The position numbers and the translations under genes are program-made. DNA of 64,000 nt from Psammoneis japonica. Taxonomy: Eukaryota. The notes under the pieces were generated by a model, which worked only from the letters and a program-made list of their open reading frames with translations, did no database searches and was not told where the DNA came from. This document shows positions 25,983 through 61,726 of the stretch, piece by piece (the stretch's first letter is position 1; each line of letters begins with the position of its first letter). The DNA lies in the NCBI GenBank assembly GCA_008632985.1, contig QPGO01000100.1, positions 114,388 through 178,387 on the forward strand, read 5' to 3'.

Positions 25983-26013
<31 letters not shown>

Positions 26014-27330: not shown

Positions 27331-30300
27331 TGTTCTCTGCTGCTGCAGCTGTTGAGCTGATGATGTCACATTGTGCACTCAATTTTCCAGTCACCAGTGT
27401 GTCAATTTCTCCACTGATGAGTGCCAAAAAATTTCCTCTCCAAACTTCCTCTCCAGATGCCCACTTCCCACTCTCTTTTCACTCTGATGCACTGCTGTGG
27501 TGAAAAAAAATGGTGAAGCAGTCTGGGGCTGGCCACTGAAGCAAGTCAGGACCTGGCTCCTGCAAAAAAAAAGAATGTTGTTGCACAAACACATGTGCTT
27601 TCCAAGGAACCCCCATGCCCCCACATCATGCCAAGCTTGCAATGGTCATTCCCTCCAACTGCGCCTCTGACAATGCTGCCATGTCAGTCCCTCTGTTGTT
27701 CCAGGCACTGCTGCTCATTCTGACTTGACAGCTGCTGCCAAATTTCATGCCACAGAGTCATTTCCTTTTGATCCTCAAACATTTGCAAAACCAAAAAGAC
27801 CCTCATCAAGCACAGCATTGTGCTGCCACCAAAATGAGAGACACCATCTTGTCTTGTGCTGGCACCCCCAAAAGCAACAAGAGCTGTGACCCTTGCTCTG
27901 CACATTGTCTCCAGCTGACATCACTTTAATTGTCCATGCTTGTGGGGCTTGGTGTTGCCCAAGACAGTGGAAAATGCCATGCAAATGATCAAGCAGCTGG
28001 GGTGAAATGCAGGAACATGCCAATGACACAAAAGCAAAGGCAGCTGTGCTGATGACAAAAAAATCTTTTTGTCCATTCCATCACAACTGGAATCTGATTT
28101 TCTCAACAAGTCCAGTGGTGCACCCAAGCCATCATCACGCCAAATGAAAAAAGGAAAGAGTGCCACAGAGCAGCCTTGACTGAGGAGGAGGAAGCCAACA
28201 CAACATCATGTGGCTCTCATTGCAGCCTCATCAACAATCTCACAAAGTTTCCCTTGTCAAACAAATGAAAGTGATGCTGGTGGGGTTTGAGAGTGCACAA
28301 ATCAGCACTGGACATTTTGACCAAGCAAATTGCTGCACAAATTGTTGCCACCAGTCATGCTGCATTGACCTGTGTTTCAGAAGATGGCTTTTGTCTGCTT
28401 CCATGGGATGAGCTCCCCCACTGAGTCACAGAAGATGCTGCACAGAGTGAGCCCAATCTGCTGGTCCCAGTCAAGTCCAGTGGGTGGGTTTGCAAGGGAG
28501 CACATTTCAGCTGTGTTTGAAGAGCCAGAGGAAAGTGCATGCCTGGACAATCTTCTGACTGTCAAATGAGAGCACTGCTCAAGGAGCAAGTTGCAACAAC
28601 AAGTGCAGAGCTAAGTGAGCCACAGCTGCCTCATCTGCAACTGTGAAGGACTTGAAGCAGAAGCACTGCACCCATTCTAAATCCCTCACATTTGAACAAC
28701 AACAAGGAGCATGAAGTCATTCTCAATGCAGCTTGCCAATGAGAGACATTGGGCTGTTGTAGGGAGAAGTGGGATGATGAGGAAAGTGACATGAAAGAGC
28801 TGAATGAAGAGAACAAAGACAATGATCTGTTGAAGCAAGAGTTTGACAGCAATGATCACCAAGCTGTCAAAAAGGAGGTGGACATTTTTGGTGCCAAACA
28901 CAACACAAAAACTCAGGTTTGTGTCCCCAAGCCACATTGTCTCTGACACTTTCTGCTTTCCAAGGTTCTTTTTGGCAAACTTGGGGAACTCAAACTTGTG
29001 CCACTGACACTTGCAAGCTCAGTCCCACACAATGCTCTTGCCAAATCATGCCATTGGTTGCCAAGATGCCAACAACTCAACCACACAGAACACTGCCAGC
29101 AGGCAAAGCACAACCATGGTTTGAGTAAAAAATCAAATCCCATTGCACAAAAGCAGCAACGCAGCACACAATGGCTCTTGTTCACCAAATGGCACAATGC
29201 AGCCAGTGCATTGATTGTCAAACATGGTGACAACCCTTTGGCTGCTCTGCACAACCATTTTTGGGGTTTCCTTGATGTGGGTTTCTTGCAGTTGCCAAAT
29301 CATGCTTGCAGCAACCAAGAAGCAATTGTTGTTTGTTTTGGTTGCTCATGTCTGCGAATCAATGTGAGATGCAATGCAATCCCTTGCTTGGAGAACACAC
29401 ACACAAATGAAGGACACTTGACAGAGACAAAAATGTGCAAGAGTCTTTTGGCCTTTTGCAGAAATTGCACTTGTTGTGCCAAAAACACAGGCACCACATC
29501 AATGTTAGAATGTGGCAGCACATTTCTTTCTGGCAAAGTGTGCATGTCTCCAGGTTTTAAAGCCAGAAGATCTTTCCAAACTCATGAACAAAGAGTCTTG
29601 AAATTGCACTCTGCTCACTCCAATGAAACACACACTCTCTTGCTCCATTTGGTGGTGTGGCCACAAAAGCAAAAATCCTCTGCTGCATTTCTCATGTCTT
29701 TGAGCATTTGAATCTCTTCTGCAACAGGCATCAACCTCTTGAAACTGCAGAGTCAGAAACAGTTGCAAATGCAAGCAACCTTGTTTTCAATGATTTTTTG
29801 CCTGCTTGATTGACGTCCACTGCAATTTTTGGTGTGCCTCTGCTGCTGAGTGAATGACTTCCATGCAGCTTGTCATCTTCCCACCACAAGATTTTGAGTT
29901 GCAAGGATCTGTGAACCAAGCTTTGCACAGCATTCACAGTGTGCACTTCTCTGGCTTTGCCACAGAATGTTGACTTCACAGGATGTGGCTGTTTTTGGCC
30001 CAAGTGCTTGCTGGAGCAGAGTTCCAAAAATGAGGCAACCACTGCATGCCCTGAGAGACAGATTGATGCATGTGCAATCTCTGTGAGGCAAAGTCAAAGA
30101 CAAAATCACACAGTCAAGCAAACAAGATGATCAGAAGTTGGAGATGGCAACAAGAAAGCTGCAGCAGTGCCAAGTGTTGGGGGGGGCACAAGTGGGTTTG
30201 TTGATTTTGTGCTGGTGCCTCAGGTGGTTGATGGCTGAATCTGTGTGCATGAATGCCACTCCATTGCTTGGCACAACATTCACACTCAAGCAGAGAAACA

Positions 30301-33169
30301 ACTCAACATGATGTTGCATGCTTTCATGAAAAGCAACTTGCTGCAGCAATTTTTTGCTGCTTTTGTGTCTCAAACATTGGTGTGGCCCTTCCACCTCTGT
30401 CTCACATCAAGCACAGCAGCCAGCTCTCTTGACTTTTGATTCTTGGATGTGGGATCAAAGAAACTTCCAAGGAGACTGCCCAAAGAGGTGCTGTCTTTGA
30501 AGGCTTGGTTTGTGTGCTGTTGTCAACATTCTCTGGAGGCTTGCACATTGCTGCACAAACATTGCACCAGCACCACTTTAGCATGTGAGTTGCAACTCAC
30601 CCAGTGTGGTGGAGTTAAAAAGAAAAAAGGGAAAGCAGCTCTGGCGGCAGCTTCTTTCCTCAAGGCTGTGGTTGCTTGGTCAATGCCCACTCACAACTTC
30701 ATTTCTTTCTCCCCTCTCTCCCCCCCCCTTTGGAGCCACTGATGTCACTGAAGTCATTTTGCCAGTGTCCAAGAAAACTCCCCAGCACCCAACCATGGCT
30801 TTGGTTTGGACTGAACAATCATTTCTGACTGTGAACACCAGGGAGTGGGCAGAGACATGCATGGATGATTGGGCAGAGTGCTGCAGTGCACAGCAAACAA
30901 CAATGGCAGCAGTGAGGCTCACCATGACATGACACACCTTGCTGCAAAAAAAGAAAAAGAGACCTTCTCACTCTGTGCTCCTCTGCAGAAGCATTGCCAG
31001 ACAAAAGCCTGCTTGCAGCCCTCACAAAAGCACAGCAAGTTGGCTGATGGGAAGTGGGGTCATTGTCTGGCAGCAGAAAGTCATCCCACAGCACCGGTGC
31101 CAGCAACTCTGAGTGCATCCTCCATGAACCAGCATCATGGTCACAATGTGCTCAATGAGTTGGACTTTGTTCAGTCCTCTGTCATTGCTTGCATCTCCTT
31201 CTGCTTTGCATGCTTCAGAGTGCAGTGTGTGGGCCCAAGCACATCAGGGCATCTTGGCAAAGCGAGACACCCCTTTGTTGTCTAGAGGAGGAGGGGCAAC
31301 TGAGTTGTGTTTGCAAAGAAGCTGTTGATCAGTGAAAGAAAGACAGCATTGAACATCTGACCACAACATCAGCAAACAAAATTGCCAAAAGTGAGGTGTC
31401 TCCTTCAATGCTTTCAATGAGTTTGAAAAAGTGCTGGAGGAAGGAAGGAAGTCAGATGGGCATGTCAACATCATCTTGAGAAAGGGGCCAAATTAAAGAG
31501 AACCCCTTGTGAGTCCACACCTTTCACTGTCGTTGTGCTTGGACTCAGCAACATGGGTTGGTGGGAGAAGTTGGGCCATGGTGTCATTTTTGTTGACAAA
31601 ATGCACTCTAAACTCTGGCCACTTTCATGTGCTTGATTGGATGAACCTTTGCTCCTGGCTGTCATGTGATGCAAAATGAATCATGTCAAGGGTGGAGTGC
31701 AAGTTCTGGCTGGAGCATTTCTCTGTTCTCAAAAGAGTGCAGACAACAAATGGGATGAATGTTGAATGTTGCTTCTGTGTGACACATGGAGCAAGTGCTC
31801 TGGAGGATCCTTTGATGATGCTTGGTGGATTGCTGCATGTCACAGCTGATTTTTGACTTTGGAGAGCTGACTCAGATGAGCAACTGGGTGGTGATTGTGG
31901 GTGCTTCAGCTCTGATTGCAGATGAGTTGTCAACAACAACAACAGAAGAAGCACAGTGGCATGTGGACATTTTCTCAGTGCAGTCATGGCATGCTCCTTT
32001 CTCACTTCTTCTTTTTTTGTTCTACACAGCACTGACAGGTGCTTTGGAGCTGCAACAGCTGCATCAACAAGACCAGCCAATCTCCAGAAGTTTGTCTGAG
32101 TGATGGTTGCCACAATTTCTTGTTTTTTTTTGCAACAAGCACTGTGGGTCCTTGGCAGCTTCAACAGCTGCTGCACCCACCACTGCAACACACACATGCT
32201 GCCAGCTGCTGAGTGTGAACATGTGGGCATGTCTCACACTCACAGGGTCTGTGCAGCACAATGAAAAAGGGCAGTTGGAATGGTCCAATGCAGTGCACAA
32301 GAGTGAGCCAAGGGCCCGGTGCACACAGCACAGGGTGTCAACTCAGGAGGATTTTGCACTGGTTTTGTGCCATTGTGCACAACTCTCTTGTCTGTTGTCA
32401 CCGGCACATGCCAACTTTTCTGTTGATGGTGAATTGGCGCCAGGTGCACCATGAAAAACACAATCATCTCTCACTTTCACACAGCAAATGAACCTTGTTG
32501 CACTTCCTTTGTGTGACTTTTTGCACCTCCAATGAGGTGCCTTGCACACAACCACCACACTCACCCCACCTGCCTGGGCAGGCTGGGCTTTGGAGGTGGT
32601 GGAACCCATGACCACACTGTTGCTCAGGATTTCATCAAAGCCAAAGGCATGCCACCAGATTCTCCTTTCCAATGCTGGGAACATGGTCAAGGGAGGATTT
32701 GTGAAGGATGCAAATGACAACAAGAGCACCCAGTGCACAACACACACACTGTCTGGCAGTTTGAACAAAGTCCAAAAGGCCTTGTGATGCCAACCCCAGC
32801 CAAGCTTGATTTTCATCTGAAAAGGCTCAAATGGCTGAAATGGCTCAAAAAGTCACCTGGAAAGAAGCAAATGTCTTTTCTTGAAGGTCAGCAACTTCCA
32901 AAAAGATTGCTTTGCTTTTTCAAGCTGTGGAAGGGCTTGAAATTTGCCATGTTGAACACAGACCACAGTGCTGCTCTGCAACCACTGACATCACATGCAA
33001 CTTGTTGATGTGCTGCAACATCATCCCTGTTTTGTTGATGACTTGCTGTTGCCACTCTGGCTGCACTGCTCTTGCACCATGCATGTGTCATGCAAGCCTT
33101 CCACCACTCATGCTGATTTGAATCGTGATGCAAAAATGCTGTTGTTCAAATTTCAAGCTTTTTGTTCAA

Positions 33170-33480
33170 AATGCAGGGTGCGCGCAGGCTTTGTCTTGCA
33201 ATCAACTTGTCCTTGGGTTTGCCACCTCAGCAGTGGGAAAAACAAAGCAAGTGCCTTCAATGTCTGCAGGAACACTCCCTTCTTGCTTCTTGGGGATGCA
33301 CAAATTTTGATGAGAATGTCTTTGATCCCTTTGAGCATTTTGCTTCAACGATGCTGAGAGGGCCAAGCTTTGCATGATTGCACTGTTCTTGATGTTGCAT
33401 GCTTGGGATTCCAGCAACATGATGGCTCCATTCACTCCCCCCATGACAGTCAAGTTGGTGTCATCAGCATGTTCATGACC
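33170..33480 (-). mobile_element. Possible Ty1/Copia RNase H relic
   Basis: LLESQACNIKN..LKQNA..RH and TKP resemble FLEAQGY.I..N..LE.NG..RH..TKP; heavily decayed. Confidence 0.4.
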
Positions 33481-33639
33481 CCCAAAACAGAGTCTTGAAA
33501 GTTTCAGAGAAAATGTTCAACACAACAACCCTGACTTCCCTTTTCTGGCTGGGAGCATGAAAAACTGTTGCAAAAGGTTGTGGAGAATGTCACTTCAACT
33601 GCTGGCAGTCTTGCAATGTGACAAAAAGAGAGTCTCAGT

Positions 33640-33945
33640 GGAGCTTTGTGGTGCTGTGATGCAACTCTGATGTGCTTTTAAACTGTGGAACAGGACAACC
33701 TTGCAGAGCTGCAAAAGGCAATTCTGGCACACCTCCAAACTCCAACAGGGTGCAGGAAAACCTCAGTGTAGCTGGTGATGCCAGCAGGCACAGAGCAAAA
33801 ACTCTGGTGCACTTTTAAACTGGGGAGCAGGGGACTCTTGCAGTGCCGCAATGCAGTTCTGACACATTTTTGAGCTGGGGAGTGGGAGAGAAGCTTGCCA
33901 TGTCACAGTGTGGCTCTGATGTGCACTTGAAACTGGGGCTGCAAA
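33640..33945. repeat. Degenerate short repeats
   Basis: Recurrent ctctgRtgYRcttttaaactg...ttgcag motif near 33665, 33802, 33858 and 33914. Confidence 0.55.
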
Positions 33946-35265
33946 ACTGTGGTCATCAGTGGTTCAGAAGAGCAGCCAGGCAATTCACCATCAGTGCCAT
34001 TGTTGAGAGAAGCTCTTGAAGAGACTTTTTAGATGGCATGGGCTCAGTCGCTCCATCGAGATGCATTTGGGCTTTTTTTGAAAATGGGGTCAGGAGGTTG
34101 CATGGAGGCCAAAACCAAATGAAGGATGAATTTTTTCAAATGACAATTGAGCTCTGCTGGGGGGCTGGCCTGAGCACCCCACCTGTGTTTTTTTCTGAAT
34201 GTTGATGTCCTCTTTTTTGCTGAAGGCAACCCAAATGTTTGCATCTGTGTGCGAGCACATGTTGTGTCCGCAGCAATCGATGCAGATGCATTGTTCATTT
34301 GTTTGCATGCAATGGCAGCCACAAATGCAACACACTCCATCAACAACAACAAACTTGCCATGACGCTTGCACACTTTGAGACAGAGCGCAGCCCATGCCG
34401 CGTGTGTGTGCCCCCACGTGTGCTTTGAAATGATCCTCCATTGCTCGCAGAGAGAAAACAGCAACTGCAAAATGTTCAATTTTTTGCCTGTCACTTTTCA
34501 GCCACATGGCTCAACAACAAGCCTGTTTCACTCTCATGTGTTGATTCTCCCATGCATGGGTTCACGAGATGTGATGCACTGGTGGTCGTCTTTGTCGCGG
34601 CTCTTGAAAATGTGACAACATGAAGAAAGCAGCAAGACACAGCAGAAGAGCTGCCATGGTGGTGGTTGAGGTGGTTTTTGCAGTTGCCAGCTGTGGTGTT
34701 CCTGTGGCAAATTTGTGCTGAAACTGAGTTGTGCTTGTCAAGTTGGTGTGGGTGGTGTTGTGCCTGCCACTTTTGGTGGCATCGGGGCCAGCAGCAAAAA
34801 AAAAAATCACGACCTGTGGCAACAAAAAAAGCACCACAACTGAGTCTCCTCTGAGCATGGTGGATGGATTGTTCTTGCACCACCCAGGAATCCACTGGCA
34901 TGGCACTAACCTGGGTGTTCAGGTCTCTGGTGGCACCTGCGCTGACGCTTGATGGTTTCCGTTCCAAAGGTGTTCATGACTGCCGCCAGTCGGTGTGTGA
35001 ACTCTGTGGTGTGCACGTTTGACTAACTGTGAGTGGCGCAGGAAAAGTTACACACGTCAGCATGCGAACTCACTCGTATGTACCCTTTAGAGTATGAATA
35101 TTTATTACTTATATGGGAAGTCAAAAGAAGAAGGTCGCGATCAACTTCAACAGATTTTGCGGAAGAACGCAAAGACACTCTTCAGATTTGCAGCGACCGG
35201 CAAAGAACAACACGAAAGATCGTTTTGTGATTGCTGCTCTATCATATACTGTTCCAACAATAACC

Positions 35266-46799: not shown

Positions 46800-48520
46800 C
46801 CAACACGAGTGGCGGGCCCAGGAGGATGCCAGGAGCAGTTGCCGCCATAGTGAGCCTTGGACTACCACATGTTTTGGCACGCCCATGCTGAATCATGTTG
46901 TGCTCTTTGGAAAACAGCAGAGCCCTGTCAGCTCGCAAAGATCACCCAACCAAAGCCTGCCCGGCTCACTGCCTTCATCCGGGAAGCAGCGTCTGGCATT
47001 GTCATTGATTCTGAGTTTGTTTTTGTGCTGAGGAGAGGCACCAACATTGCATGATGCCAAAGGTCAACCCCCTGGTTTTGCCTCAGAAGCACCTGAAGTG
47101 GAGTTGATGGGTCCCATGCCATGAGCCCCTGCATGACTCACAGGACCCTGCAGAGGGTGTGGATTTGCCAAAAAAAAACCTTGTGCAGAGCTTGTGCCAA
47201 GAGAGCTGCTCTTTCCAAGTGCTCTGGTGTGTCAAGTCACTCCTCAGTGGTTCTTGGCTGGGACATCTGGAGTTCCAAGTTGAGTTGGTGGGTTGCTGTC
47301 TGTCAATTCAAACCCTCTTCATGCTCCAGTTCACACCACATGGATGTGAGCCCCACAGCAAGGCTGCCCAACAAGCATTGAGTCCCAGATTGATCCACTT
47401 GGATGAGAGTCCCTCTGGGCCAAGATGGCTTCAGGCCCAAGAAGCAGCAGCTGGCATCACCACTGGTCCTGAGCTCACACTTGCACTGGCTGGGAGAGGC
47501 ACCAACAATGTTGCACAATGACAAAGGTCACTCTCCCTCAATTTTGTCTCACACAAGTGCCCAACAAAGTGGAGCTGGTGGGTCCTGTGCCATGAGCCCC
47601 TGTGCAACACACAGGACCCTGTGGAGGGCATGGAGCCAATTTGCGCACACTCTTGAGCAGGGTCATTTGCTCCCCCTCCCCCTCACACACACACCAGCTC
47701 CTCAGTTTGACAACACTCACCCTGAAACAGCATGTCTGGAGCAAGAATTTGCCATGATGAAGGAGAGTCTGTTCTTTGAGCAATGAAAGCAGTTCCTTCT
47801 TTGGCTTGAGGTCAGGAACTCTCAAGAAGAGGGGGCTTTGCCTCAACCACCCTTGGTCAGGTTTCTTGTGCAGATGACTGGTGAGCATTTGACCCCCAAA
47901 ACCACTTCCCCTTGCCATGGCAGGTGCGATGGGCACTGGCCCCAGAATGTTTGCTTCAAGTGCTGGGAGACACCTGAGGCATGAATGCAAGGAAATCGTC
48001 AGAGATGGCACAGATCAGGTTGGACCTGGCGTGCTGGTTTTAAAAATCTCAGTTTGCAAGCTGAGGGCAGGCAGACTGTCAAGTGTCCAAGAAAATTTGG
48101 CAAAAGCTTTTTAAAAGCACATGTTGGACATGGCTTGGTTTGGAAAGTGCCGGTGGAGGCTGCCACCCTTGTGCTCTGGCAGCACTTTTTGCACTGAAGC
48201 AGCAAGCAAAGAGATGCAAAAACTTTGCTGCAAACTTGTGCTTAGAAACACAAGGAGGACATCGTTGCCAGCAGTGGCATCACAGACACTGGCAGCAACC
48301 CAGCGCGACAAACACAAACACAGTGTGTGCTCATGCTGTGACCCAGAGCTGAATCTCCCTGTCATCAGCAGCGTGTTTCAGCAACAATGACAACAACTGC
48401 TGTGCTGCCCCACCTCAAGCATTTCCTTTCTTCTCCTTCCAATGCAACACACCACCACTTGCTCAACTCCCTCAATGGCAACACTGGGTGGACATGAGAC
48501 TGGAACTCATCCTTGTCCTT
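46800..48520. other. TpA/CpG-depleted degenerate block 3
   Basis: Same composition; internal ~47-bp direct repeat at 47111 and 47583. Confidence 0.9.
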
Positions 48521-48751: not shown

Positions 48752-49966
48752 ATGACGACATCTGATACATTGCTCCTGTTCTCTCTTCTGGTTGCATTTT
48801 TCCAGTCTTCAGCTTTTACTATTCCAACAAACAATAGACAGGCAAATTCCCATCGATCGTCGGCATTGAACGCCGAGAAACGACCGGTAGTTGTTGTGGG
48901 GAGAGTGGATCATGTTGGCGGTGAACCACTTCAAGTGGTTGGGAGCGCATCGGCAGCCATGGTGGGAGCCGCTTTGGCCTTGAGCGCACGTGACTTGTTA
49001 AAGGGCGATTTGAGACTTCCTACGCAAGAGACGCCACCTCCAGCTCAACCAATAACAATGCTAACATCGATTGATCAGAACGCACCTGCTGCAATTGAAG
49101 ATTCGCTGTATGAATACTTGGAAGAGACTTTGTGGGATTCTCCTGCTCTCCTTGTTCGACGAACACAAAACAAGGAATATCCTGTAATTGCCGATTATGA
49201 AAGCTGTCTCAATCAACGATTCGATAATCAGGCCTGGAACAACCGACCAATTTTACATGTTGTCATGGAAGGAGGAACTGCTGCTGAAGCCCTATTAGAT
49301 CAACAGCTTCGGGATGATGTTTTCTTTTTGGGTATAGAGCCAGTTGTCCCCTTTGAGAATAACGGGGTCGTTTCACCAGAAATGGCGCAACAATGTGGCT
49401 CGATATTGCAGCGCATCCTTGACTTTTACCAGACGGACCAGGAGGCCGCAGCCGTATCCTTGGATTCACCCTTACTTCTCAGCATGTTGCAAGCAAATTG
49501 TTTGCCAAAGTCGTCGACAAACAGGGACTCTTTTGCGGTGCATCCGAGTGGCTCACAGAGAGGGGAGAGTTCTACCGGCCTCCTCGTCGAGTATTTGTAC
49601 GACTATGATAATGCCTTTGGAGGAACGGACCCCCTGTCGTGTCCAACCAACGAGTTTAGTATTCCGGTGCCCTATGAACCATCAAGCAAGAATACTCCCA
49701 GGATGTTGTCAAAGGCGGGAAGCAATGCCGCCGCTGCTGCGTATACAGTTTTGCGAGGTCATGGAATGGAGTCTGTCTTGTCCATGTGTATTGCAGCAAG
49801 TATTGAAGCGTTATTTTGGGAGATGCAGCAACATTCCTCTTTTGAATGTCCTCCTTATACATGGAGTAGCATTGAGAGAGTTGCTACTCTCAGTGAGCAA
49901 GTGCGAGATTACGTACGGGAAGAACAAGTAGTACGGCAAAGGTACATTGAATTCGGCTATAAATAA
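48752..49966 (+). CDS. Hypothetical protein with bipartite plastid-type presequence
   Basis: 404-aa ORF; signal peptide ending SSA-FTIP (ASAFAP-like). Confidence 0.75.
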   Translation: MTTSDTLLLFSLLVAFFQSSAFTIPTNNRQANSHRSSALNAEKRPVVVVGRVDHVGGEPLQVVGSASAAMVGAALALSARDLLKGDLRLPTQETPPPAQPITMLTSIDQNAPAAIEDSLYEYLEETLWDSPALLVRRTQNKEYPVIADYESCLNQRFDNQAWNNRPILHVVMEGGTAAEALLDQQLRDDVFFLGIEPVVPFENNGVVSPEMAQQCGSILQRILDFYQTDQEAAAVSLDSPLLLSMLQANCLPKSSTNRDSFAVHPSGSQRGESSTGLLVEYLYDYDNAFGGTDPLSCPTNEFSIPVPYEPSSKNTPRMLSKAGSNAAAAAYTVLRGHGMESVLSMCIAASIEALFWEMQQHSSFECPPYTWSSIERVATLSEQVRDYVREEQVVRQRYIEFGYK

Positions 49967-50142
49967 CACCTTATTCTTTTGCAATCGTGTGTTGTGATAT
50001 TGTTTGTGCTTTTATTGATTGACTACATGATCACTTCTACAAGGAGAAAACTCCGCGGGGTGATGCCCTCACACCTTTCTTTCACTTCGTTTGGATAATC
50101 AAGCCAAGAACCGTCGAGGAACCAAGCGCTTCTTATTCGCCA

Positions 50143-51126
50143 TCAAACCGACACTTGCGTCGACAAATAGTTGGCCAACTCTTGGTGCCCAGTTGGATTG
50201 GGATGCCAAGCGTCAGTGATTGAACTTGTCTCAAATTCCCACATCCAGCCATCGGGATTCTGAACAAAAAGTTTCGGGTCGATCTCGTGTCCAGCAAAGA
50301 GGCTCATTGTGTCCACAGACTGAAAGGTCGGACCATTAGGGATCGCGTTGGCAGTGGCGACAGCTCGTTCAAAGGTCGCCTTCTGCTCGTCTGCAAAGGT
50401 ACGGTATTCCTTGCGCATATTGATGGCAATGAAAAAGCCAAACAACCAGTCGTTTTTGTCTAGCACAAGGTGCGGGTAGTTGACCATGGCCACTGTGGCT
50501 TGGCTGGACAATTTCGTCGCAAGCTCAGAGAACATGGCATCAAGTTGGTCCTCAACAGCGGGTAAGGTGGCAGTGGCTTCCGCTAGCTCCTTTCTGCAAT
50601 TGCGTGCATTTCGTGTGATGAGGCAGGCTCTGGTCATCTCGGGAAACCCAGCATCATTGCCGCCAACCGAAATGAGCACCAGGTCGGTGGACGCGTCGAC
50701 AGCCTCGATCTGTTTCTTCAAGTACCGAGTGCACAACAAGCCTTCTTTCTCAAACTCTTCATCTTGGTTTTCCGGAGGACAAGAACCAAGAAATGTGTTC
50801 TTCTCTCTGCGATTGGTGATGTCCTCGACTCGTCCATTGTAACAAGCTCGATTGACAAAAGAGTCAGCAGCAGCAAGCGAGTCGGCATGCTGGCTAGCCC
50901 AACCAGTAGGGCTCCGAGCACAGCCACTCGGCCCATCGTAATTTTCCTTTCCAAACTCGTCGCGCGCTCCGGTTCCAGAGGCAAATGAATCGCCAAGTGC
51001 CACCACATTGAGGGCGACCGAGACATGAGGACACAAGAACAACATCGGCATTAACAGTCCCACAGACAGCGATGCGGCTTTCACTGCTTTGATTGCTGAT
51101 GAGACGGTGTTCATAGAGTCTGACAT
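50143..51126 (-). CDS. Secreted SGNH/GDSL hydrolase (SEST-like), copy A
   Basis: ALGDSFASG, NRACYNG, SVGGNDAGF, DAWHPNPTGH; signal peptide. Confidence 0.9.
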   Translation of the reverse strand: MSDSMNTVSSAIKAVKAASLSVGLLMPMLFLCPHVSVALNVVALGDSFASGTGARDEFGKENYDGPSGCARSPTGWASQHADSLAAADSFVNRACYNGRVEDITNRREKNTFLGSCPPENQDEEFEKEGLLCTRYLKKQIEAVDASTDLVLISVGGNDAGFPEMTRACLITRNARNCRKELAEATATLPAVEDQLDAMFSELATKLSSQATVAMVNYPHLVLDKNDWLFGFFIAINMRKEYRTFADEQKATFERAVATANAIPNGPTFQSVDTMSLFAGHEIDPKLFVQNPDGWMWEFETSSITDAWHPNPTGHQELANYLSTQVSV

Positions 51127-51329
51127 GTTGTCAACCGAACAATCTGTGTTTATGTGGCACAATGGGTGCCAATCAATGCAACAAAAGTGGGTTCGATGAA
51201 GCAGCCTCCACCCATGCGGTGATTTATTCCAAAACGTGACGTTGCGTTCCTCACAGTCCGTTGCTTGCGCTTGTTTTTTAGTTTTACTTGCTCGGGTGTG
51301 CACCGTTTAGGCCCTGTAGGATGACGTGG

Positions 51330-54315
51330 CAAGATGTCAAGTTTGTGTGCATTCAGTGTCGCACTTTTCTCCACGCAAAAAGCATGGGTTGACCATGGGA
51401 TTCCCGACGAAGAAGAGCATTCTGTTGGGCTATCTAATTTGCTTCTTATCTTACTTTTCTACATCAGAAGGCATTGGATCAATGAAGCTGACCAACATGG
51501 GGATTTGCAACCTGGTTTTTTCTGCTTTTGGAAAAGTGTCCAGCACCTCTTGCTGACGGGACATGTCATTGCAAAATCAAGGAAGCACAACCCAATCTAG
51601 AGAGTCTTGGGTTCAAGCCTTGGGCAGAAAAGATGAGAGCAATCTTGACAACTTTGACTCAAATCAGAGTGGCAGCAGAGGCGCTGCACATCAAAATCAA
51701 GTCCACACTGCACGGCCAGTTGACTGACATGGGGAAATGGAGGACAGTGTTCCCAAAAGAAGACACGTTGTTGTGCACTGTGTTGCTGATCCATCCCAGC
51801 AGGTTGAGAAACCACTCAAAGAGGCAGGTTCTTTTCAAAGGCTTCTGAAAGTTTTTGGGGTGTGGCTGCACTCACATGACAAACGTCATCGGCGCGAATT
51901 GAGAGGAGAGACATGCAGAGCTGGGGGCTGAAATGCAGGTGGAGCCCCCATGCACTCAGCTGTTTAATCTTCAGAGAGCTGCTGCTGCAAGAAATGAAGG
52001 CAATCCACAATCTGGCAAAACTTGTTGGGGCAGTCCAGAGGCCAAAAAACTGTTTCCTGGTGATTCCAGAGAAGTGAGGAAAATGTGGCGGCAGCTCTGG
52101 AGTGATGCACATCATCAACAGACCACAACAAGTTGGCAAGAAGACACATGAAAGACAGACCAAGGTCATCAATCAATGTGGCAGGGACCAAATCTCTGCA
52201 GCCCTCATGATGCGAACCTTGTGTCACAAAGAAATCTTGCTTTGGGTGGCATTGGCCCAGGCAACAGGCACGCAAGGATGTTGGCAGGAGAGAGGAGGGA
52301 GCTTTGGCAGGCAGAGAAGGAAGGGCAGGAGTCAGAAAAGTTGGAGAGGACAGTCCAAGGTGGCTTTGGGCATGGAAAAAAGCCAAAGAAGAAAGAATGG
52401 AAATGATGGCCAGTGGTCAAAGGGGCAAAGTGTTGGCAAAGGCCATTGAGAGAGGCCAAGGGTTTCAACAATGGCACGGGTGGGATTGTGGGTGTGTGGT
52501 TGGAGAGGGAGCCATTGTGCATTTTGGGGCACACAGAGGCATGGTCATTGAAGGGGTCAAAGGAAGAGTGCAGCTGCAAGGGCAGGGCAAGTGCCAGAGG
52601 TCTGGAGGGTGGCAAGGTGACAGAGCTTGTGAAGGAAAAGAAAGGCAATTTGGAGGGGGAAAAGGCAGCTGCATGGGTGGAAGGAGTGGAGACAGAGCAG
52701 GCTGGCAAGCTGGGGAAAGAGCAGAAGGGGGGTTTTGAAGTTGGGGTGTTGAAGGATGAAAAGGAGAGCAGTCTGATGTGGGGTGTTGCACAGGTGGGCA
52801 CATTGGGCAAGGCCTCAGAGGTGCATTGTGTGGCCAGAAAGAGCAGTGGGAAGCAAGGAGTCAAAGATGGGAGAGCAAAAGAGCCAAAAGACAACATGGA
52901 GGCAGAGGCAAGAGCGGGAGTCAGACAAAGAGGCAAGATGAGCAGAGTGGCTGGGTGGCAAAGAGAAGAGTTGGTCACAAGTGGGGGACACCTCCATGTT
53001 TGGCAAATCAGGAGCAGGGCGGCCAGGAAAGGGAGATGACAAGAAGGAGGAGGGAGGCAACAGCAATGGCTGAGACATCAGCCAAAGCAGCTGATGCCAC
53101 ACCAAGGGAAGCAGAAGGGAGAAGGGCAACAAAAAGAGCTGCAGCAGGGAAGGGGTGGGGTGGGGGGTCACTGTGAGGTGGGAGAGGAAGTGGAGAGAGT
53201 GTGCCCAATGACAGAATCAGCAAAGGGAGAGGCCCTGTGAAAGAGGTTTTGGGTGGGTGTCGGGGGACAGGAGGTTGCAGCAGGCACCAGCAGCAGAAAA
53301 AAAGCAACAGATGCTGGGCCAGAGGGGGTGGAGCAATTGCAGGAGAGTGTGCTTTGGGTTTGCAGGCACCAAGGGCAGCAGAGGTCTTGGGCAAAGAGGT
53401 GGAGGAGGCAGCCTTGGACAAAAGAAAGTTCATGGAAGCAAGTTGCTGACCAAGAATGTGGGCACCAACAGCAAATTCAAGATGTGTGTCAACAGTTGTT
53501 GACAAGACAAGGCATTCTTGGAGAAGGTGGCATCATCATCTGGAGAGAGGGAGTGAGGGGAGTCAGAGATGGAAGCGAAGAGATTTTTGTTTTAAAAAAA
53601 ATTGAGGACAATGCCAAGGGGAGGGCCTGGGTGGGTCAGATGCTCAAGGAACCAAGGCATGACAAAGTGGGGCAGAAAGGCATGGTGTGTTTGTGCACTG
53701 AAGCAATCCAGAGATTGCTGTTTTGTTGAGCTGTTGACCCAGCCCGCAAAGAGGCAGGCCTCAAATGAATCAAAACACTTTGTGAAAAAATGTGAGTGTG
53801 GAGCTTCAATCTTCTTGAGCCACAATGCTCCCCACTCTCCAGGAGCTTTTTGTTGTGTTGCTTGGCATGAAAAATGTGCTTGTTGAGCAACAAACATGGG
53901 CACACATGATTCATGAGAGACGGCGCCACTCAACCGCTCGCAAAACAACGAGTGAGCTCCCCACCAGAATTGCCGCAAGCAAACAAGCTTTTGATTTTGC
54001 CAGCTTTTGCAGCATTGATTCACAATTGTTTTTGGGACAAACACAGAATGTGCATGATCATTGAGATGCCACTCTGCTGGCAAGCAGAAGCTCCCCAGCT
54101 GCTGTGAGCAAGCAACCTTTTGCTTTGGCCAGCTTTGCAATGTTGATCTGCAGCTGTTTCTGTGCCTCCCACTGGGAGAAGACGTTTCTCAACACCAGCA
54201 CCAGCAGCACAGTTTCACCTGGGTGTGCCATGGCCATTGGCAAGAGGGGTTTTTTTTGGGGGAAAAGACTGACGATGACACAACATGCAGTCCCAGCTGT
54301 TGGAGATGGGACTTC
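51330..54315. other. TpA/CpG-depleted spacer X1
   Basis: Converted composition with a purine-rich middle; family not recognised. Confidence 0.9.
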
Positions 54316-54560
54316 AATGCCGCTGCTGCTGCCGCGCACACAGTTTTGCGCGATCATGGAATGGAGTCTGTCTTGTCCATGTGCATTGCTGCAAGTGTTG
54401 AAGCATCATTTTAGGAGATGCAGCAACATTCCTCTTTTGAATGTCCGCCCCATAAATGGAGTAGCATTGAAAGAGTTGCTGCTCTCAGTGAGCAAGTTCG
54501 AGATTACGCACGGGAAGAACAAGTGGTGCGACAAAGGTGCATTGAATTAATTCGGCTGTG
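54316..54560 (+). pseudogene. 3' fragment of the 48752-49966 gene, TA-converted
   Basis: Aligns to 49724-49960 with Y>H/C changes and a TAG stop. Confidence 0.9.
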
Positions 54561-54726
54561 TTACCTTGCTCTGTTGCAATCATGTGCCGCACTTGCTGTT
54601 TTGGTGCTTTTGTTGAATGTGATTACTTCCACAAGGAGAAAACTCCGCGGGGTCGCGCCCCGCACCCTCCTTTTACCTCGTTTGGAATCAAGCCAAGAAG
54701 GGAACCAAGTTCTTCTTTATTCGCTG

Positions 54727-55715
54727 TCAAACAGACAACTGCGTCGACAAATAGTTTGCCAGCTCTCGGTGCCCTGTCGGGTTGGGATGCAAAGCGTTGG
54801 TGATTGGGCTTGTCTCAAATTCCCAGATCCAGCGATCGGGATTCTTAACAAATGGTTTCGGGTCAGTCTCGTGTCCAGCAAAGAGGCTCATTGTGTCCAC
54901 AAACTGAAAGGTGGGACCATTGGGGATCGCATTGGCAGTGGCGACAGCTCGTTCAAAGGTCGCCTTCTGCTTGTCTGCAAAGGTGCGGCATTCCTTGCGC
55001 ACATTGATGGCAATGAAAAAGCCAAACAACCAGTCGTTTTTGTCTGGCACAAGGTGCGGGTGGTTGACCATGGCCACTGTGGCTTGGCTGGACAATTTCG
55101 TCGCAAGCTCAGAGAACATGGCATCAAGTTGGTCCTCAACAGCGGGTAAGGTGGCAGTGGCTTCCGCTAGCTCCTTTCTGCAATTGCGTGCATTTCGTGT
55201 AATGAGGCAGGCTCTGGTCATCTCGGGAAACCCAGCATCATTGCCGCCAACCGAAATGAGCACCAGGTCGGTGGACGCATCGACAGCCTCGATCTGTTTC
55301 TTCAAGCACCGAGTGCACAACAAGCCTTCTTTCTCAAACTCTTCATCTTGGTTTTCCGGAGGACAAGAACCAAGAAATGTGTTCTTCTCTCTGCGATTGG
55401 TGATGTCCTCGACTCGTCCATTGCAACAAGCTCGATTGACAAAAGAGTCAGCAGCAGCAAGCGAGTCGGCATGCTGGCTAGCCCAACCAGTGCCGCAGGG
55501 CTCCGAGCACAGCCACTCGGCCCATCGTAATTTTCCTTTCCAAACTCGTCGCGCGCTCCGGTTCCAGAGGCAAATGAATCGCCAAGTGCCACCACATTGA
55601 GGGCGACCGAGACATGAGGACACAAGAACAACATCGGCATTAACAGTCCCACAGACAGCGATGCGGCTTTCACTGCTTTGATTGCTGATGAGACGGTGTT
55701 CATAGAGTCTGACAT
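54727..55715 (-). pseudogene. SGNH hydrolase copy B (chimera of A and C, frameshifted, TA-converted)
   Basis: 5-bp insertion within 55491-55497; CYNG>CCNG, RYL>RCL, NYP>NHP, EYR>ECR relative to copy A. Confidence 0.92.
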
Positions 55716-55929
55716 GTTGTCAACCGAACAATCTGTGTTTGTGTGGCACAATGGGTGCCAATCAACATGACAAAAGCAGGTTCGATGAAGCAGCCTCCAC
55801 CCATGCGGTGATTTATTCCAAAACGTGACGTTGCGTTCCTCACAGTCCGTTGCTTGCCTGCACGCTTGTTTTTTTGTTTTTCAGTTTTACTTGCTCGGGT
55901 GTGCACCGTTTAGGCCCTGTAGGATGACG

Positions 55930-58909
55930 TGGCAAGATGTCAAGTTTGTGTGCATTCAGTGTCGCACTTTTCTCCACGCAAAAAGCATGGGTTGACCATG
56001 GGATTCCCGACGAAGAAGAGCATTCTGTTGGGCCATCTAATTTGCTTCTTGTCTTACTTTTCTACATCAGAAGGCATTGGATCAATGAAGCTGACCAACG
56101 TGGGGATTTGCAACCTGGTTTTTTCTGCTTTTGATGAAGTGTCCAGGGCCTCTTGCTGATGGGACATGTCATTGCAAAATCAAGGAAGCACAACCCAATC
56201 TAGAGAGTCTTGGGTTCAAGCCTTGGGCAGAAAAGATGAGAGCAATCTTGACAACTTTGACTCAAATCAGAGTGGCAGCAGAGGCGCTGCACATCAAAAT
56301 CAAGTCCACACTGCACGGCCAGTTGACTGACATGGGGAAATGGAGGACAGTGTTCCCAAAAGAAGACACGTTGTTGTGCACTGTGTTGCTGATCCATCCC
56401 AGCAGGTTGAGAAACCACTCAAAGAGGCAGGTTCTTTTCAAAGGCTTCTGAAAGTTTTTGGGGTGTGGCTGCACTCACATTGCAAACGTCGTCGGCGCGA
56501 GTTGAGAGGAGAGATGCAGAGCTGGGGGCTGAAATGCAGGTGGAGCCCCCATGCACTCAGCTGTTTAATCTTCAGAGAGCTGCTGCTGCAAGAAATGAAG
56601 GCAATCCACAATCTGGCAAAACTTGTTGGGGCAGTCCAGAGGCCAAAAAACTGTTTCCTGGTGATTCCAGAGAAGTGAGGAAAATGTGGCGGCAGCTCTG
56701 GAGTGATGCACATCATCAACAGACCACAACAAGTTGGCAAGAAGACACATGAAAGACAGACCAAGGTCATCAATCAATGTGGCAGGGACCAAATCTCTGC
56801 AGCCCTCATGATGCGAACCTTGTGTCACAAAGAAATCTTGCTTTGGGCGGCATTGGCCCAGGCAACAGGCACGCAAGGATGTTGGCAGGAGAGAGGAGGG
56901 AGCTTTGGCAGGCAGAGAAGGAAGGGCAGGAGTCAGAAAAGTTGGAGAGGACAGTCCAAGGTGGCTTTGGGCATGGAAAAAAGCCAAAGAAGAAAGAATG
57001 GAAATGATGGCCAGTGGTCAAAGGGGCAAAGTGTTGGCAAAGGCCATTGAGGGAGGCCAAGGGTTTCAACAATGGCACGGGTGGGATTGTGGGTGTGTGG
57101 CTGGAGAGGGAGCCATTGTGCATTTTGGGGCACACAGAGGCGTGGTCATTGAAGGGGTCAAAGGAAGAGTGCAGCTGCAAGGGCAGGGCAAGTGCCAGAG
57201 GTCTGGAGGGTGGCAAGGGTGACAGAGCTTGTGAAGGAAAAGAAAGGCAATTTGGAGGGGGAAAAGGCAGCTGCATGGGTGGAAGGAGTGGAGACAGAGC
57301 AGGCTGGCAAGCTGGGGAAAGAGCAGAAGGGGGGTTTTGAAGTTGGGATGTTGAAGGATGAAAAGGAGAGCAGTCTGATGTGGGGTGTTGCACAGGTGGG
57401 CACATTGGGCAAGGCCTCAGAGGTGCACTGTGTGGCCAGAAAGAGCAGTGGGAAGCAAGGAGTCAAAGATGGGAGAGCAAAAGAGCCAAAAGACAACATG
57501 GAGGCAGAGGCAAGAGTGGGAGTCAGACAAAGAGGCAAGATGAGCAGAGTGGCTGGGTGGCAAAGAGAAGAGTTGGTCACAAGTGGGGGACACCTCCATG
57601 TTTGGCAAATCAGGAGCAGGGCGGCCAGGAAAGGGAGATGACAAGAAGGAGGAGGGAGGCAACAGCAATGGCTGAGACATCAGCCAAAGCAGCTGGTGCC
57701 ACACCAAGGGAAGCAGAAGGGAGAAGGGCAACAAAAAGAGCTGCAGCAGGGAAGGGGTGGGGTGGGGGGTCATTGTGAGGTGGGAGAGGAAGTGGAGAGA
57801 GTGTGCCCAATGACAGAATCAGCAAAGGGAGAGGCCCTGTGAAAGAGGTTTTGGGTGGGTGTCGGGGGACAGGAGGTTGCAGCAGGCACCAGCAGCAGAA
57901 AGAAAGCAACAGATGCTGGGCCAGAGGGGGTGGAGCAATTGCAGGAGAGTGTGCTTTGGGTTTGCAGGCACCAAGGGCAGCAGATGGGCAAAGAGGTGGA
58001 GGAGGCAGCCTTGGACAAAAGGAAGTTCATGGAAGCAAGTTGCTGACCAAGAATGTGGGTGCCAACAGCAAACCCAAGATGTGTGTCAACAGTTGTTGAC
58101 AAGACAAGGCATTCTTGGAGAAGGTGGCATCATCATCTGGAGAGAGGGAGTGAGGGGAGTCAGAGATGGAAGTGAAGAGATTTTTGTTTTAAAAAAATTT
58201 GAGGACAATGCCAAGGGGAGGGCCTGGGTGGGTCAGATGCTCAAGGAACCAAGGCATGACAAAGTGGGGCAGAAAGGCATGGTGTGTTTGTGCACTGAAG
58301 CAATCCAGAGATTGCTGTTTTGTTGAGCTGTTGACCCAGCCCGCAAAGAGGCAGGCCTCAAATGAATCAAAACACTTTGTGAAAAAATGTGAGTGTGGAG
58401 CTTCAATCTTCTTGAGCCACAATGCTCCCCACTCTCCAGGAGCTTTTTGTTGTGTTGCTTGGCATGAAAAATGTGCTTGTTGAGCAACAAACATGGGCGC
58501 ACATGATTCATGAGAGACGGCACCACTCAACCGCTCGCAAAACAACGAGCGAGCTCCCCACCAGAATTGCCGCAAGCAAACAAGCTTTTGATTTTGCCAG
58601 CTTTTGCAGCATTGATTCACAATTGTTTTTGGGACAAACACAGAATGTGCATGATCATTGAGATGCCACTCTGCTGGCAAGCAGAAGCTCCCCAGCTGCT
58701 GTGAGCAAGCAACCTTTTGCTTTGGCCAGCTTTGCAATGTTGATCTGCAGCTGTTTCTGTGCCTCCCACTGGGAGAAGACGTTTCTCAACACCAGCACCA
58801 GCAGCACAGTTTCACCTGGGTGTGCCATGGCCATTGGCAAGAGGGTTTTTTTTGGGGAAAAGACTGACGACGACACAACATGCAGTCCCAGCTGTTGGAG
58901 ATGGGACTT
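55930..58909. other. TpA/CpG-depleted spacer X2 (duplicate of X1)
   Basis: Near-identical to 51330-54315. Confidence 0.92.
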
Positions 58910-59165
58910 CAATGCCGCTGCTGCTGCCGCGCACACAGTTTTGCGCGGTCATGGAATGGAGTCTGTCTTGTCCATGTGTATTGCTGCAAGTGTTGAAGCG
59001 TTATTTTGGGAGATGCAGCAACATTCCTCTTTTGAATGTCCGCCCTATAAATGGAGTAGCATTGAAAGAGTTGCTACTCTCAGTGAACAAGTGCGAGATT
59101 ACGTAGGGCCCTACGGGAAGAACAAGTAGTACGACAAAGGTACATTGAATTAATTCGGCTATATT
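58910..59165 (+). pseudogene. 3' fragment of the 48752-49966 gene
   Basis: Aligns to 49724-49960; 8-bp insertion within 59104-59113. Confidence 0.9.
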
Positions 59166-59329
59166 ACCTTACTCTGTTGCAATCATGTACCGCACTTGCT
59201 GTTTTGGTGCTTTTATTGAATATGATTACTTCCACAAGGAGAAAACTCCGCGGGGTCGCGCCCCGCACCCTCCTTTTACCTCGTTTGGAATCAAGCCAAG
59301 AAGGGAACCAAGTTCTTCTTTATTCGCTG

Positions 59330-60310
59330 TCAAACAGACAACTGCGTCGACAAATAGTTTGCCAGCTCTCGGTGCCCAGTCGGGTTGGGATGCAAAGCGT
59401 CGGTAATTGGGCTTGTCTCAAATTCCCAGATCCAGCGATCGGGATTCTTAACAAATGGTTTCGGGTCAGTCTCGTGTCCAGCAAAGAGGCTCATTGTGTC
59501 CACGAACTGAAAGGTGGGACCATTGGGGATCGCATTGGCAGTGGCGACGGCTCGTTCAAAGGCCGCCTTCTGCTCGTCTTCAAAGGCGCGGTATTCCTTG
59601 GGCATGTTGATGCCAATAAAAAAGCCAAACAACCAGTAGTTTTTGTCTTGCACTTGGTGCGGGTAGTGGACCATGGCCACTCTGGCTTGGCTGGACAGTC
59701 TCGTCGCAAGCTCAGAAAACATGGCATCAAGTTGGTCCTCGACAGCGGGTAAGGTGGCGGTGGCTTCCACTAGCTCATTTCTACATTTGTGCGCATTCCG
59801 TGTAATGAGGCAGGCGGTGGATATCTCGACAAACCCGGCATCAATGCCGCCAACCGAAATGAGCACCAAGTCGGTAGACGCGTCAACAGCCTCAATCTGT
59901 TTCTTCAAGTACCGAGTGCAGAACAGGTCTTCTTTCTCAAACTCTTCATCTTGATTGTCAGGAGGACAAGAACCAAGAAACTTGTTCTTCGCTCTGCGAT
60001 TGGTAATGTCCTTGACTCGTCCATTGGAACAAGCTCGATTGACAAAAGAGTCAGCAGCAAGCGATTCGGCATACTGGCTAGCCCAACCAGTAGGGCTCCT
60101 AGAACAGCCACTCGGCCCATCGTAATTTTCCTTGCCAAACTCGTCGCGCGCTCCGGTTCCAGAGGCAAATGAATCGCCAAGTACCACCACATTGAGAGCT
60201 TCCGAGACTTGAACACAGAATAACAATAACAGCAGCATCAATAGCCCCACAGACAGCGATGCGGCTTTCATAGTTTTGATTGGCGAGACTGTGAACATAG
60301 AGTCTGACAT
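59330..60310 (-). CDS. Secreted SGNH/GDSL hydrolase, copy C
   Basis: Intact ORF; GDSFASG and DALHPNPTGH; block III reads GGID rather than GGND. Confidence 0.88.
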   Translation of the reverse strand: MSDSMFTVSPIKTMKAASLSVGLLMLLLLLFCVQVSEALNVVVLGDSFASGTGARDEFGKENYDGPSGCSRSPTGWASQYAESLAADSFVNRACSNGRVKDITNRRAKNKFLGSCPPDNQDEEFEKEDLFCTRYLKKQIEAVDASTDLVLISVGGIDAGFVEISTACLITRNAHKCRNELVEATATLPAVEDQLDAMFSELATRLSSQARVAMVHYPHQVQDKNYWLFGFFIGINMPKEYRAFEDEQKAAFERAVATANAIPNGPTFQFVDTMSLFAGHETDPKPFVKNPDRWIWEFETSPITDALHPNPTGHRELANYLSTQLSV

Positions 60311-60555
60311 ACTGCCAACCGAACACACTGTGTGAGTGAGACAATGGGTGCCAATCAAAAACAAAAACAGGTGCGGGGGTGAATAAGCGCCGCGCCCTCG
60401 TGCTTCCAACTTCCAAGCGCTCCAAGTTTTTTGCGTGGTTGACAGATAACTCTGAAGAAACAGATCCGGCCGGCCGGCCGGCCGGGCGGGCGGCTTCGGG
60501 CGGACGACGTCGAGCGAGCGACCACATCTTCTACTCTCTAGCTCTACAGTAGCTA

Positions 60556-61280
60556 GAAAGCAGATGAGGGAAAGCTTGGTGTCTCCTTTGCCAGTTCTCT
60601 GCCAAGAATCACCAAAGTGTCGGAGTCGTCAAGCCACGTCGGTCTCATCGAGAAATCAGAAACTGTCACTGGCTTGATCATTCCTGGAGTGATCAAGATT
60701 TGTGGCTTTGGAACATCCCAGCTGCTGTCTCTGCCAAAAACCCACTCAGCTGTTGAAGGGAAGGTCCTGCTTGTTTCCAGCTTGGGCGGAACAGAATCTG
60801 AAGAATCTGGTGGTTGCGGATCGCACATTGTTCTCAAGAAGACATGGAAGGTCAAAGAGTGCCAAGTCGCAACTGAAAAGAGCTTTTCATTTCATGGTCC
60901 AGTGCCCTCGAGCCTCATCCAAGTTGTCAACGAAAATCTCGCAATGATCAAGCCAGTGCAAGGCACTGGCACCATCAAGTTCTCACTTGATGATTCTGGC
61001 CACCACCATGCCAACATGATGCACAACTGTCAAAAATGCGTGAGGAAGACGCACTTGTGTGCATCTGTGACACGATGGAAGCTTTGGGACATCAGTGCCT
61101 CCATCAATTTGATTCGGAAACATCATCCACCAAAGTTGTTGGTGGGTTGTCATGCACTGCACGAGAAATGTTTCTCTTCCACAAGGATTGACCATCTAAA
61201 TTCCTGTCACGTGCGTCCAGGCGCATGAGACATTGGACAACATTGTTTTCTGACCATGAATGCATTGGAAGCATCCCAGA
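60556..61280. other. TpA-depleted but CpG-retaining relic
   Basis: No TA seen from 60556 to 61196, while about 17 CG remain (hand count). Confidence 0.8.
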
Positions 61281-61726
61281 CGATAACAAGCCTTTGGCTG
61301 TAGAACAATTGTTACTTTACAATGTCAGATTGTCACGTGCACGTATTGTGAGGTCTATTTAAGCAATGCTTTCAGAGAGAAAGTAAACCAGAGGTCTGAA
61401 GGCAGACGCGTTCAAGGTTGACACAGGAAGAGCATTGTCAGACGATGTCAGAGGTTGGGGGCACATTCTAGAGTGAAAAGGAAAGGGAAGACTTTGCCAA
61501 GATGGGGAGCGAAGGCGCGTTGATTTTCTAAATTACGAGTATCTTGGCTGCTCCGCGCCTTTTCGTTGACCGTTGTATCTTTGTACTTAGAAGAATCTGA
61601 TTGAAGATCAACATCGACTACCTGTGCGATCCACAAGATTTGTAATTCTGTCCATCATGGACAAGAGAAATAGAGTTGCAATGCGGGCCGATGGCTCTAT
61701 CGACTCTCCTGTATCATAAGAAATCA

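Follow-up and report, generated by a model that had tools for sequence, protein, structure and literature searches.

We propose that the 641 bases at positions 60556-61196 of the window (the whole 64,000-nucleotide stretch of DNA analysed here) are a dead host-gene copy that was rewritten by fast TpA hypermutation and that lost CG by a separate, slower route; we put the probability of this reading at roughly three in four. Under the proposed mechanism, a TpA-specific A:T-to-G:C hypermutation would convert TA to TG or CA, on either strand, within sharply bounded tracts of silent DNA. The conversion would saturate quickly, and in the gene copy (hereafter the relic) all TA is gone. CG loss in the same tracts would follow a separate and slower route, most likely the deamination of methylated cytosine, and the relic would represent an intermediate stage at which 100% of TA and roughly a quarter to a half of CG are lost. 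What is new here is that the TpA-erasing process strikes a copy of a host gene and runs to completion, and that its kinetic order relative to CpG decay can be obtained from polarised pairs, the per-site rate of TA loss being about 15 times that of CG loss in one copy of a neighbouring gene array. Two layers of mutation with the common end point TG/CA, easily confused as one, can be told apart by this order. In print, TpA-specific hypermutation was otherwise found once, in the available text of a preprint on viral inserts of an unrelated alga (10.64898/2026.01.13.699255).

The TA-free tract and its coding origin

The tract, its flanks and the gene copy within it are as follows.

60410-60555, no strand: unconverted GC-rich junction from GDSL copy C' to the relic, TAs kept up to 60554
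60556-61196, no strand: fully converted tract (HMM boundaries 60555-61196)
60557-61191, plus strand: start-less host-gene copy (the relic), N-terminal part PDZ-like, C-terminal domain conserved, TGA at 61189-61191
61038-61039, plus strand: one-base omission in the assembly, extra base in both read variants
61197-61311, no strand: partly converted 3' flank, where a read variant has TA and the window CA/TG

The original prediction described about 640 bp without TA in which about 17 CG were kept, and the counts are 0 TA and 17 CG in 641 bases. The observed/expected ratio (o/e) of CG is 0.45, that of CA is 1.59 and that of TG is 1.61, at a TA o/e of 0.00 and a GC content of about 48%. Over the full span 60556-61280, a single TA is present versus the 48.7 expected from base composition, along with 20 CG. 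The TAs bordering the run lie at 60554 and 61197, and the left edge is very sharp, with five TAs in 60533-60554 and none after. At 32.6 TA per kb, the average of 11 genes in the window, a TA-free run of 641 bases has a probability of 8.5e-10 per start and about 5e-5 over the window; in those genes, which hold 57.7 CG per kb, the longest TA-free run is 222 bases. The run is not due to chance. A DNA self-search of the 64-kb window found no second copy of 60400-61500. We also note a (CCGG)n-like GC-rich filler at 60466-60520, between GDSL copy C' and the relic, at the end of the tandem array described below.

What was this sequence before its TAs were lost? One plus-strand frame is open across the entire TA-free run, the other two plus-strand frames contain seven TGA each, and an equally long open frame occurred in 7 of 2000 dinucleotide-preserving shuffles. 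A search of 1.84 billion representative proteins with the relic's translation gave 45 relatives at E<=1e-3, the best at 7e-19. Three of these relatives (P0043, P0008 and P0010) have the two-part layout of the relic and, in the alignment, the same C-terminal endpoint as the TGA at 61189-61191. The C-terminal domain is conserved (ILKKTFK...EKSFSFHG...QKYxEED...FRFQYD...FIFxK) and in the relatives corresponds to no Pfam model; PF00595 (PDZ) is matched by P0008 (31.9 bits) and P0010 (28.3 bits), above the cut-off of 23.2. A Pfam search with the relic's own translation gave no match, and a separate homologous-protein search with the relic ORF yielded none of 257 candidates at E<=0.001. In the Protein Atlas, the best score for P0008 was 0.80, below evidence level, to a PDZ cluster in which the commonest taxon is Bacillariophyta.

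Tyr is absent from the 212 residues of the relic, and His and Cys make up 5.2% and 4.25%, the corresponding values in the relatives being Tyr 1.92%, His 2.02% and Cys 0.87%; this is the expected product of TAY changing to CAY or TGY. Loci encoding the family, located by scanning metagenome contigs with the family alignment (A2), have ordinary TA content in seven of seven cases (35.5-43.7 TA per kb). The relic is also without a start: in-frame TAGs stand at 60539 and 60554, and the earliest in-frame ATG is codon 124. Given the open frame, the relatives, the normal TA content of the family and the missing start, the stretch is, judged from its sequence, a dead copy, without a start, of a host gene that encoded a small PDZ-like protein, and it is not a transposon relic. 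Of the "early-stage converted relic" originally predicted, the conversion stands; its CG content, however, is not pristine, at least five CG having been lost and the CG o/e of 0.45 comparing with 0.84-1.11 in the window's genes.

The alignment had suggested a frameshifted pseudogene. This candidate was dropped when both read variants proved to carry an extra base after 61038 (a C in the window-like contig, a T in the other). The apparent frameshift is an assembly indel; with the base restored, QKC-R-EED lies in one frame and the frame is continuous.

Polarised comparisons and the order of loss

Reads with the stretch were found in one sample, probably the assembly's own, and short-read contigs were compared over 60300-61500. 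Two variants cover the relic at similar depth, one window-like (33-39) and a second, different one (24-35).

60568-61309, no strand: span with the second, largely unconverted variant (alternative contigs: records 2, 3 and 6 and one more)

The second variant is about 93% identical to the relic, with 44 differing letters over 60568-61189 (records 2, 3 and 6). Differences were classed for 24 of these 44 (40 of 57 overall), and the resulting counts are lower bounds for the relic. Among the 24 listed, TA in the variant stands opposite CA or TG in the window at 10 sites, and CG in the variant stands opposite TG or CA at five, versus one case of the reverse (window CG, variant TG); two of the remaining letters belong to one site with window TG and variant CA, and six are of other kinds. 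With TA in the variant at no fewer than 10 of the relic's CA/TG sites, the source was not TA-free, and the ordinary TA content of all seven family loci answers the same question; a TA-free source had been named in the original prediction as a refuting condition. In the 3' flank the variant has TA and the window CA or TG at 61224, 61241, 61267, 61272 and 61311, the last on the basis of a single contig, and the opposite case occurs once, at 61197, where the window keeps TA and the variant has TG (letter 61198). In all, 15 of the 33 listed differences between relic and variant are TA in the variant and CA/TG in the window, and the CA and TG products are interspersed along the relic.

The polarity of these changes is supported by the protein family. 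Residues 63 and 150, which are His in the window, are encoded by Tyr codons in the variant, and Tyr is found at these positions in 30% and 68% of the aligned relatives, so the TA state of the variant is ancestral there. Seven of the ten in-run conversions fall at codon position 1 or 2 and change the residue, for example from Tyr to His or Cys. Furthermore, the second variant (record 2) fits the window only from 60568 on, and its preceding 30 letters hold an in-frame ATG; the variant thus has a start and the window copy does not. Read by eye, the N-terminus of the variant is MKKQITLQP followed by GKLGVSF. At 60701-60702 the window has TG and the second variant CA, which would fit separate conversions of a single ancestral TA, on opposite strands in the two variants, so that the second variant may itself be partly touched.

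Could the relic nevertheless be a working gene, or a sequence kept natively free of TA by selection or codon bias and not by mutation? The frame, intact once the assembly indel is corrected, speaks for such a reading. It is opposed by the missing in-frame start, with two upstream TAGs and no in-frame ATG before codon 124, by the TAs of the sister variant and the normal TA content of the family loci, by the seven residue-changing conversions, and by a 3' flank that is partly converted as well. We consider this reading extremely improbable, and a functional, natively TA-free gene is excluded as far as the sequence allows.

The second variant may be a paralogue or, in a diploid, the alternative allele; both fit the contig depths, which are 38.6 left of 60568 and 53 right of 61280, with a single contig on each side. 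The tract begins at 60556 and the similarity to the second variant begins by 60568; on the right side, conversion fades by about 61311 and the similarity reaches at least 61309. Because the left edge of the tract lies within about 12 bases of where the similarity between the variants begins, we raise, as a tentative and rather unlikely extension, the idea that TA erasure is copy-aware in a RIP-like manner: one of two variants about 93% alike in one nucleus would be rewritten, and CG decay (methylation) would then follow. If true, the genome would have a defence that senses duplications or alleles, uses adenine chemistry and also kills host gene copies, and TA erasure would be the first step of silencing, not its consequence. 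The locus offers a clean test, with two variants in one culture of which one is converted, and bears on what directs the process.

A second set of polarised changes comes from the tandem GDSL-lipase array at 49.7-60.4 kb, which consists of unit A (49723-54314), unit B (54315-58909) and a partial unit C' (58910-60375). In each case, lineage-specific changes were polarised by the two sister copies.

49723-51186, minus strand: copy A of the GDSL-lipase unit, polarity reference
54315-55784, minus strand: copy B, partly converted, the conversion declining with distance from the block to its left
58910-60375, minus strand: copy C', polarity reference, unconverted, 50 TA in 1466 bases

Lineage B: TA converted 14/24, CG converted 3/52, other sites changed 7/1082
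Lineage C': TA converted 1/11, CG converted 6/61, other sites changed 73/1148
Lineage A: TA converted 4/16, CG converted 7/61, other sites changed 61/1153

The excess of TA over CG loss in copy B (Fisher p = 1.2e-6), together with the losses of at least 10 TA versus at least five CG in the relic, bears out the claim that TpA conversion outruns CpG decay. Changes from TA to CA or TG make up 15 of the 25 B-specific changes, versus 3 of 88 for lineage C' and 4 of 81 for lineage A, and changes from CG to TG or CA make up 3 of the 25. Expressed as -ln(1-f), the rates in copy B are about 135 times that of other sites for TA and about 9 times for CG, a TA/CG ratio of about 15 in which the CG rate is based on three events. 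Conversion in copy B falls with distance from the left block, from 11 of 14 TAs in the first 385 bases to 2 of 4, 1 of 4 and 0 of 2. Likewise, copy B holds 18 TA and 70 CG over 54412-55784, and copies A and C' hold 36 and 48 TA and 70 CG each. As originally suggested, TpA conversion is thus not a by-product of CpG decay, the CG count of copy B being unchanged at 70 while its TAs were lost. The direction, site specificity, order and rough relative rates of the changes can be read directly from these comparisons; the evidence on the order of TA and CG loss comes from this 64-kb window, with small counts of CG events.

Three further observations concern the array. Over its first ~700 bases, copy B is similar to C', with indels in common, and from there on it is nearly identical to A, which suggests that the array is a mosaic produced by unequal crossing-over or gene conversion. 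As a result of these mosaic relations, the changes called lineage-specific span different times. Ten TA sites of copy A are CA or TG in both B and C'. Finally, at 60367-60409, the 5' end of GDSL copy C', the only covering read contig differs by seven letters and two indels in 43 bases, and this may be a local assembly error in a repeated region.

Converted tracts across the window

Six TA-poor tracts defined by the HMM make up 42.7% of the window. Those needed for the argument, and the genes and elements within or near them, are listed here.

1-1100, no strand: MULE region (TA o/e 0.15, CG o/e 0.83), with a MULE transposase fragment at 261-776 (plus strand)
20160-35023, no strand: largest converted tract, with CG retained at its two edges and within the SABATH-type pseudogene at 23548-24639
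23548-24639, minus strand: SABATH-type pseudogene, two adjacent frames matching Methyltransf_7 (E 6.2e-10 and 3.5e-4)
51461-54411, no strand: TA-free, CG-poor block in unit A (HMM tract and A/B comparison)
56064-58978, no strand: duplicate in unit B of the unit A block (HMM tract and A/B comparison)

The same order of loss had been predicted for the edges of the largest tract, for copy B and for the SABATH pseudogene, and it is found in all of them. There are 2 TA and 13 CG (o/e 0.46) at 20165-20600, 2 TA and 22 CG (o/e 0.44) at 34250-35040, 18 TA versus 70 CG in copy B, and 1 TA and 25 CG in the pseudogene, whose CG o/e of 0.35 (TA o/e 0.02) is above that of its surroundings; the block interior at 25000-34000 has a TA o/e of 0.04 and a CG o/e of 0.07. 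Among 213 non-overlapping 300-base windows, nine have a TA o/e below 0.15 with a CG o/e of at least 0.4, and none has a CG o/e below 0.25 with a TA o/e of at least 0.4. The examples can be arranged as a series of intermediates.

MULE region: TA o/e 0.15, CG o/e 0.83
Copy B: TA o/e 0.22, CG o/e 0.78
Relic: TA o/e 0.00, CG o/e 0.45
SABATH-type pseudogene: TA o/e 0.02, CG o/e 0.35
Block interiors: TA o/e 0.03-0.04, CG o/e 0.07-0.10

CG loss in the relic is estimated at 5 or more of 22 from the listed read differences and at up to about half from the gene baselines, and in block interiors it amounts to about 85-95%. The MULE region is a transposon-derived case in which TA is lost and CG kept, its transposase fragment being matched at E 4.3e-5, below the gathering score. 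A Pfam search of 77 stop-to-stop ORFs from the tracts and the first 2 kb of the window gave the MULE and Methyltransf_7 matches only. Nested inverted repeats at 15927-18021, with arms of up to 312 nt that are 84-97% complementary, have normal TA content; they contain 180-base direct repeats at 17186-17682, and this repeat structure is untouched by TA erasure.

The duplicated blocks of units A and B record the later phase. They differ at 38 of 3143 columns: CG stands opposite CA/TG at 11 of them and TA opposite CA/TG at three, which all lie near the left edge (51279-51448); the remaining 24 are of other kinds. Since there are few TA but 11 CG differences, the block was already TA-free before its duplication, and CG loss has been ongoing since; it has reached about 12% of some 46 sites per copy, versus 0.4% at other sites.

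Is the order temporal, or could it be spatial? The TA footprint might be wider than, or different from, that of CG methylation, with short, marginal or gene-derived DNA only weakly methylated. In the outer 200 bases of the tract edges, the CG o/e is 0.38-0.55 at six of 12 edges, including the two of the relic (0.42 and 0.44), versus 0.09-0.16 in the five measured interiors of larger tracts (0.50 in the relic interior). In addition, three of the five intermediate examples are host-gene-derived (the relic, copy B and the SABATH pseudogene), and the relic is just 641 bases long. However, a tract of 1178 bases at 46864-48041 is nearly as short and yet has a CG o/e of 0.11, four tract edges show no such retention (o/e 0.09-0.10), and the MULE region, which is transposon-derived, is still at a CG o/e of 0.83. 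Moreover, CG decay is already accelerated in the relic (five lost versus at least one in the variant, among the listed differences) and in copy B (3/52 versus 7/1082 at other sites). As CG retention is seen at six of 12 edges and is absent at four, position as well as time may matter. We regard a purely spatial order as the less probable account; retained CG itself may reflect either youth or weak methylation.

Both conversions yield TG/CA in the same tracts, and one could imagine a single deaminase, strong on A in TpA and weak on C in CpG, with no role for cytosine methylation. Yet the blocks of units A and B still lose CG long after their TA was exhausted (11 differences), which fits steady decay. 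CG-specific loss is the standard outcome of 5mC deamination. The CG-specific loss seen here fits that process, and DNMT5-dependent methylation of diatom transposons is described in the available text of a published study (PMC9998398). On the other side, ADAT2 of amphioxus and Trypanosoma deaminates both A and C in nucleic acids, according to the available preprint text (10.64898/2026.01.13.699255). On balance we consider a single enzyme improbable. We prefer two separate routes, and we infer an adenine deaminase acting on DNA as the agent of TA conversion and methylation of the CGs of the tracts as the ground for their decay.

How might these layers be used to date silencing? The ratio of TA to CG, proposed earlier as a dating tool, makes a poor clock. 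TA saturates almost at once, so only CG loss keeps time, and as a clock it is valid only if methylation is uniform. In practice, we propose that the TA state be read as "hit or not" and CG loss as the time elapsed in silenced DNA.

Comparison with known systems

RIP converts CpA to TpA and makes DNA AT-rich; it acts locally, kills duplicated or mobile DNA and is associated with cytosine methylation. It is pre-meiotic and duplication-sensing, and it can strike one gene copy and spill into the flanks. RIP of Neurospora and other ascomycetes (PMC7296669) serves as our first comparison system. Like RIP, the process described here is a local transition hypermutation at one dinucleotide that hits one gene copy and its flanks. 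In the opposite sense to RIP, TpA is destroyed here and GC is near 48%, and the C>T changes at CpA that define RIP are not what is found. Pre-meiotic timing and duplication sensing are features of RIP, and the present process is known from its footprint in the DNA.

A closer relative is the TpA-only hypermutation that strikes giant-virus and virophage DNA integrated in Bigelowiella natans, which arises de novo at more than 1000 times the baseline and for which Mettrop et al. propose an ADAT2-like adenine deaminase acting on DNA (bioRxiv 10.64898/2026.01.13.699255, available text). This preprint was the only work on TpA-specific hypermutation that our literature search found, and the search found none on diatoms or on the order relative to CpG decay; in the text of the preprint "CpG" occurs 0 times, and coupling or order with CpG loss is absent from it. 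In both systems the changes fall almost only at TpA and give TpG or CpA depending on the strand; they stay within local regions, next to genes that are left intact, and their long-term footprint is TA depletion with CA/TG enrichment. The confinement in our window is seen in six bounded tracts, in the neighbouring, unconverted copy C' and in five TAs within 25 bases of the relic's left edge. Unlike the viral inserts of that chlorarachniophyte, the targets here are a host-gene copy and transposon-like blocks in a diatom-like genome; the relic belongs to a host family, and a MULE fragment and a SABATH-type pseudogene are affected as well, so that the targets are not confined to viral or foreign DNA. 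TA is also fully erased in the relic, whereas the viral region of Bigelowiella natans still contains 3.3% TpA (10.64898/2026.01.13.699255, available text).

Finally, the second layer resembles the decay of methylated CpG in silenced vertebrate transposons (PMC12582260, available text). In both, CG turns into TG/CA in silent DNA, here at a rate about 9 to 33 times that of other sites, and the excess is found in the blocks (11 of 38 differences on about 46 CG sites), in copy B (3/52 versus 7/1082) and in the relic (five versus one among the listed differences). Because DNMT5a-dependent methylation of diatom transposons has been published (PMC9998398, available text), decay by 5mC deamination is the simplest explanation of this loss. 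Unlike plain methylated-CpG decay, CG loss here forms a slower second layer, presumably methylation-dependent, over the erasure of TA.
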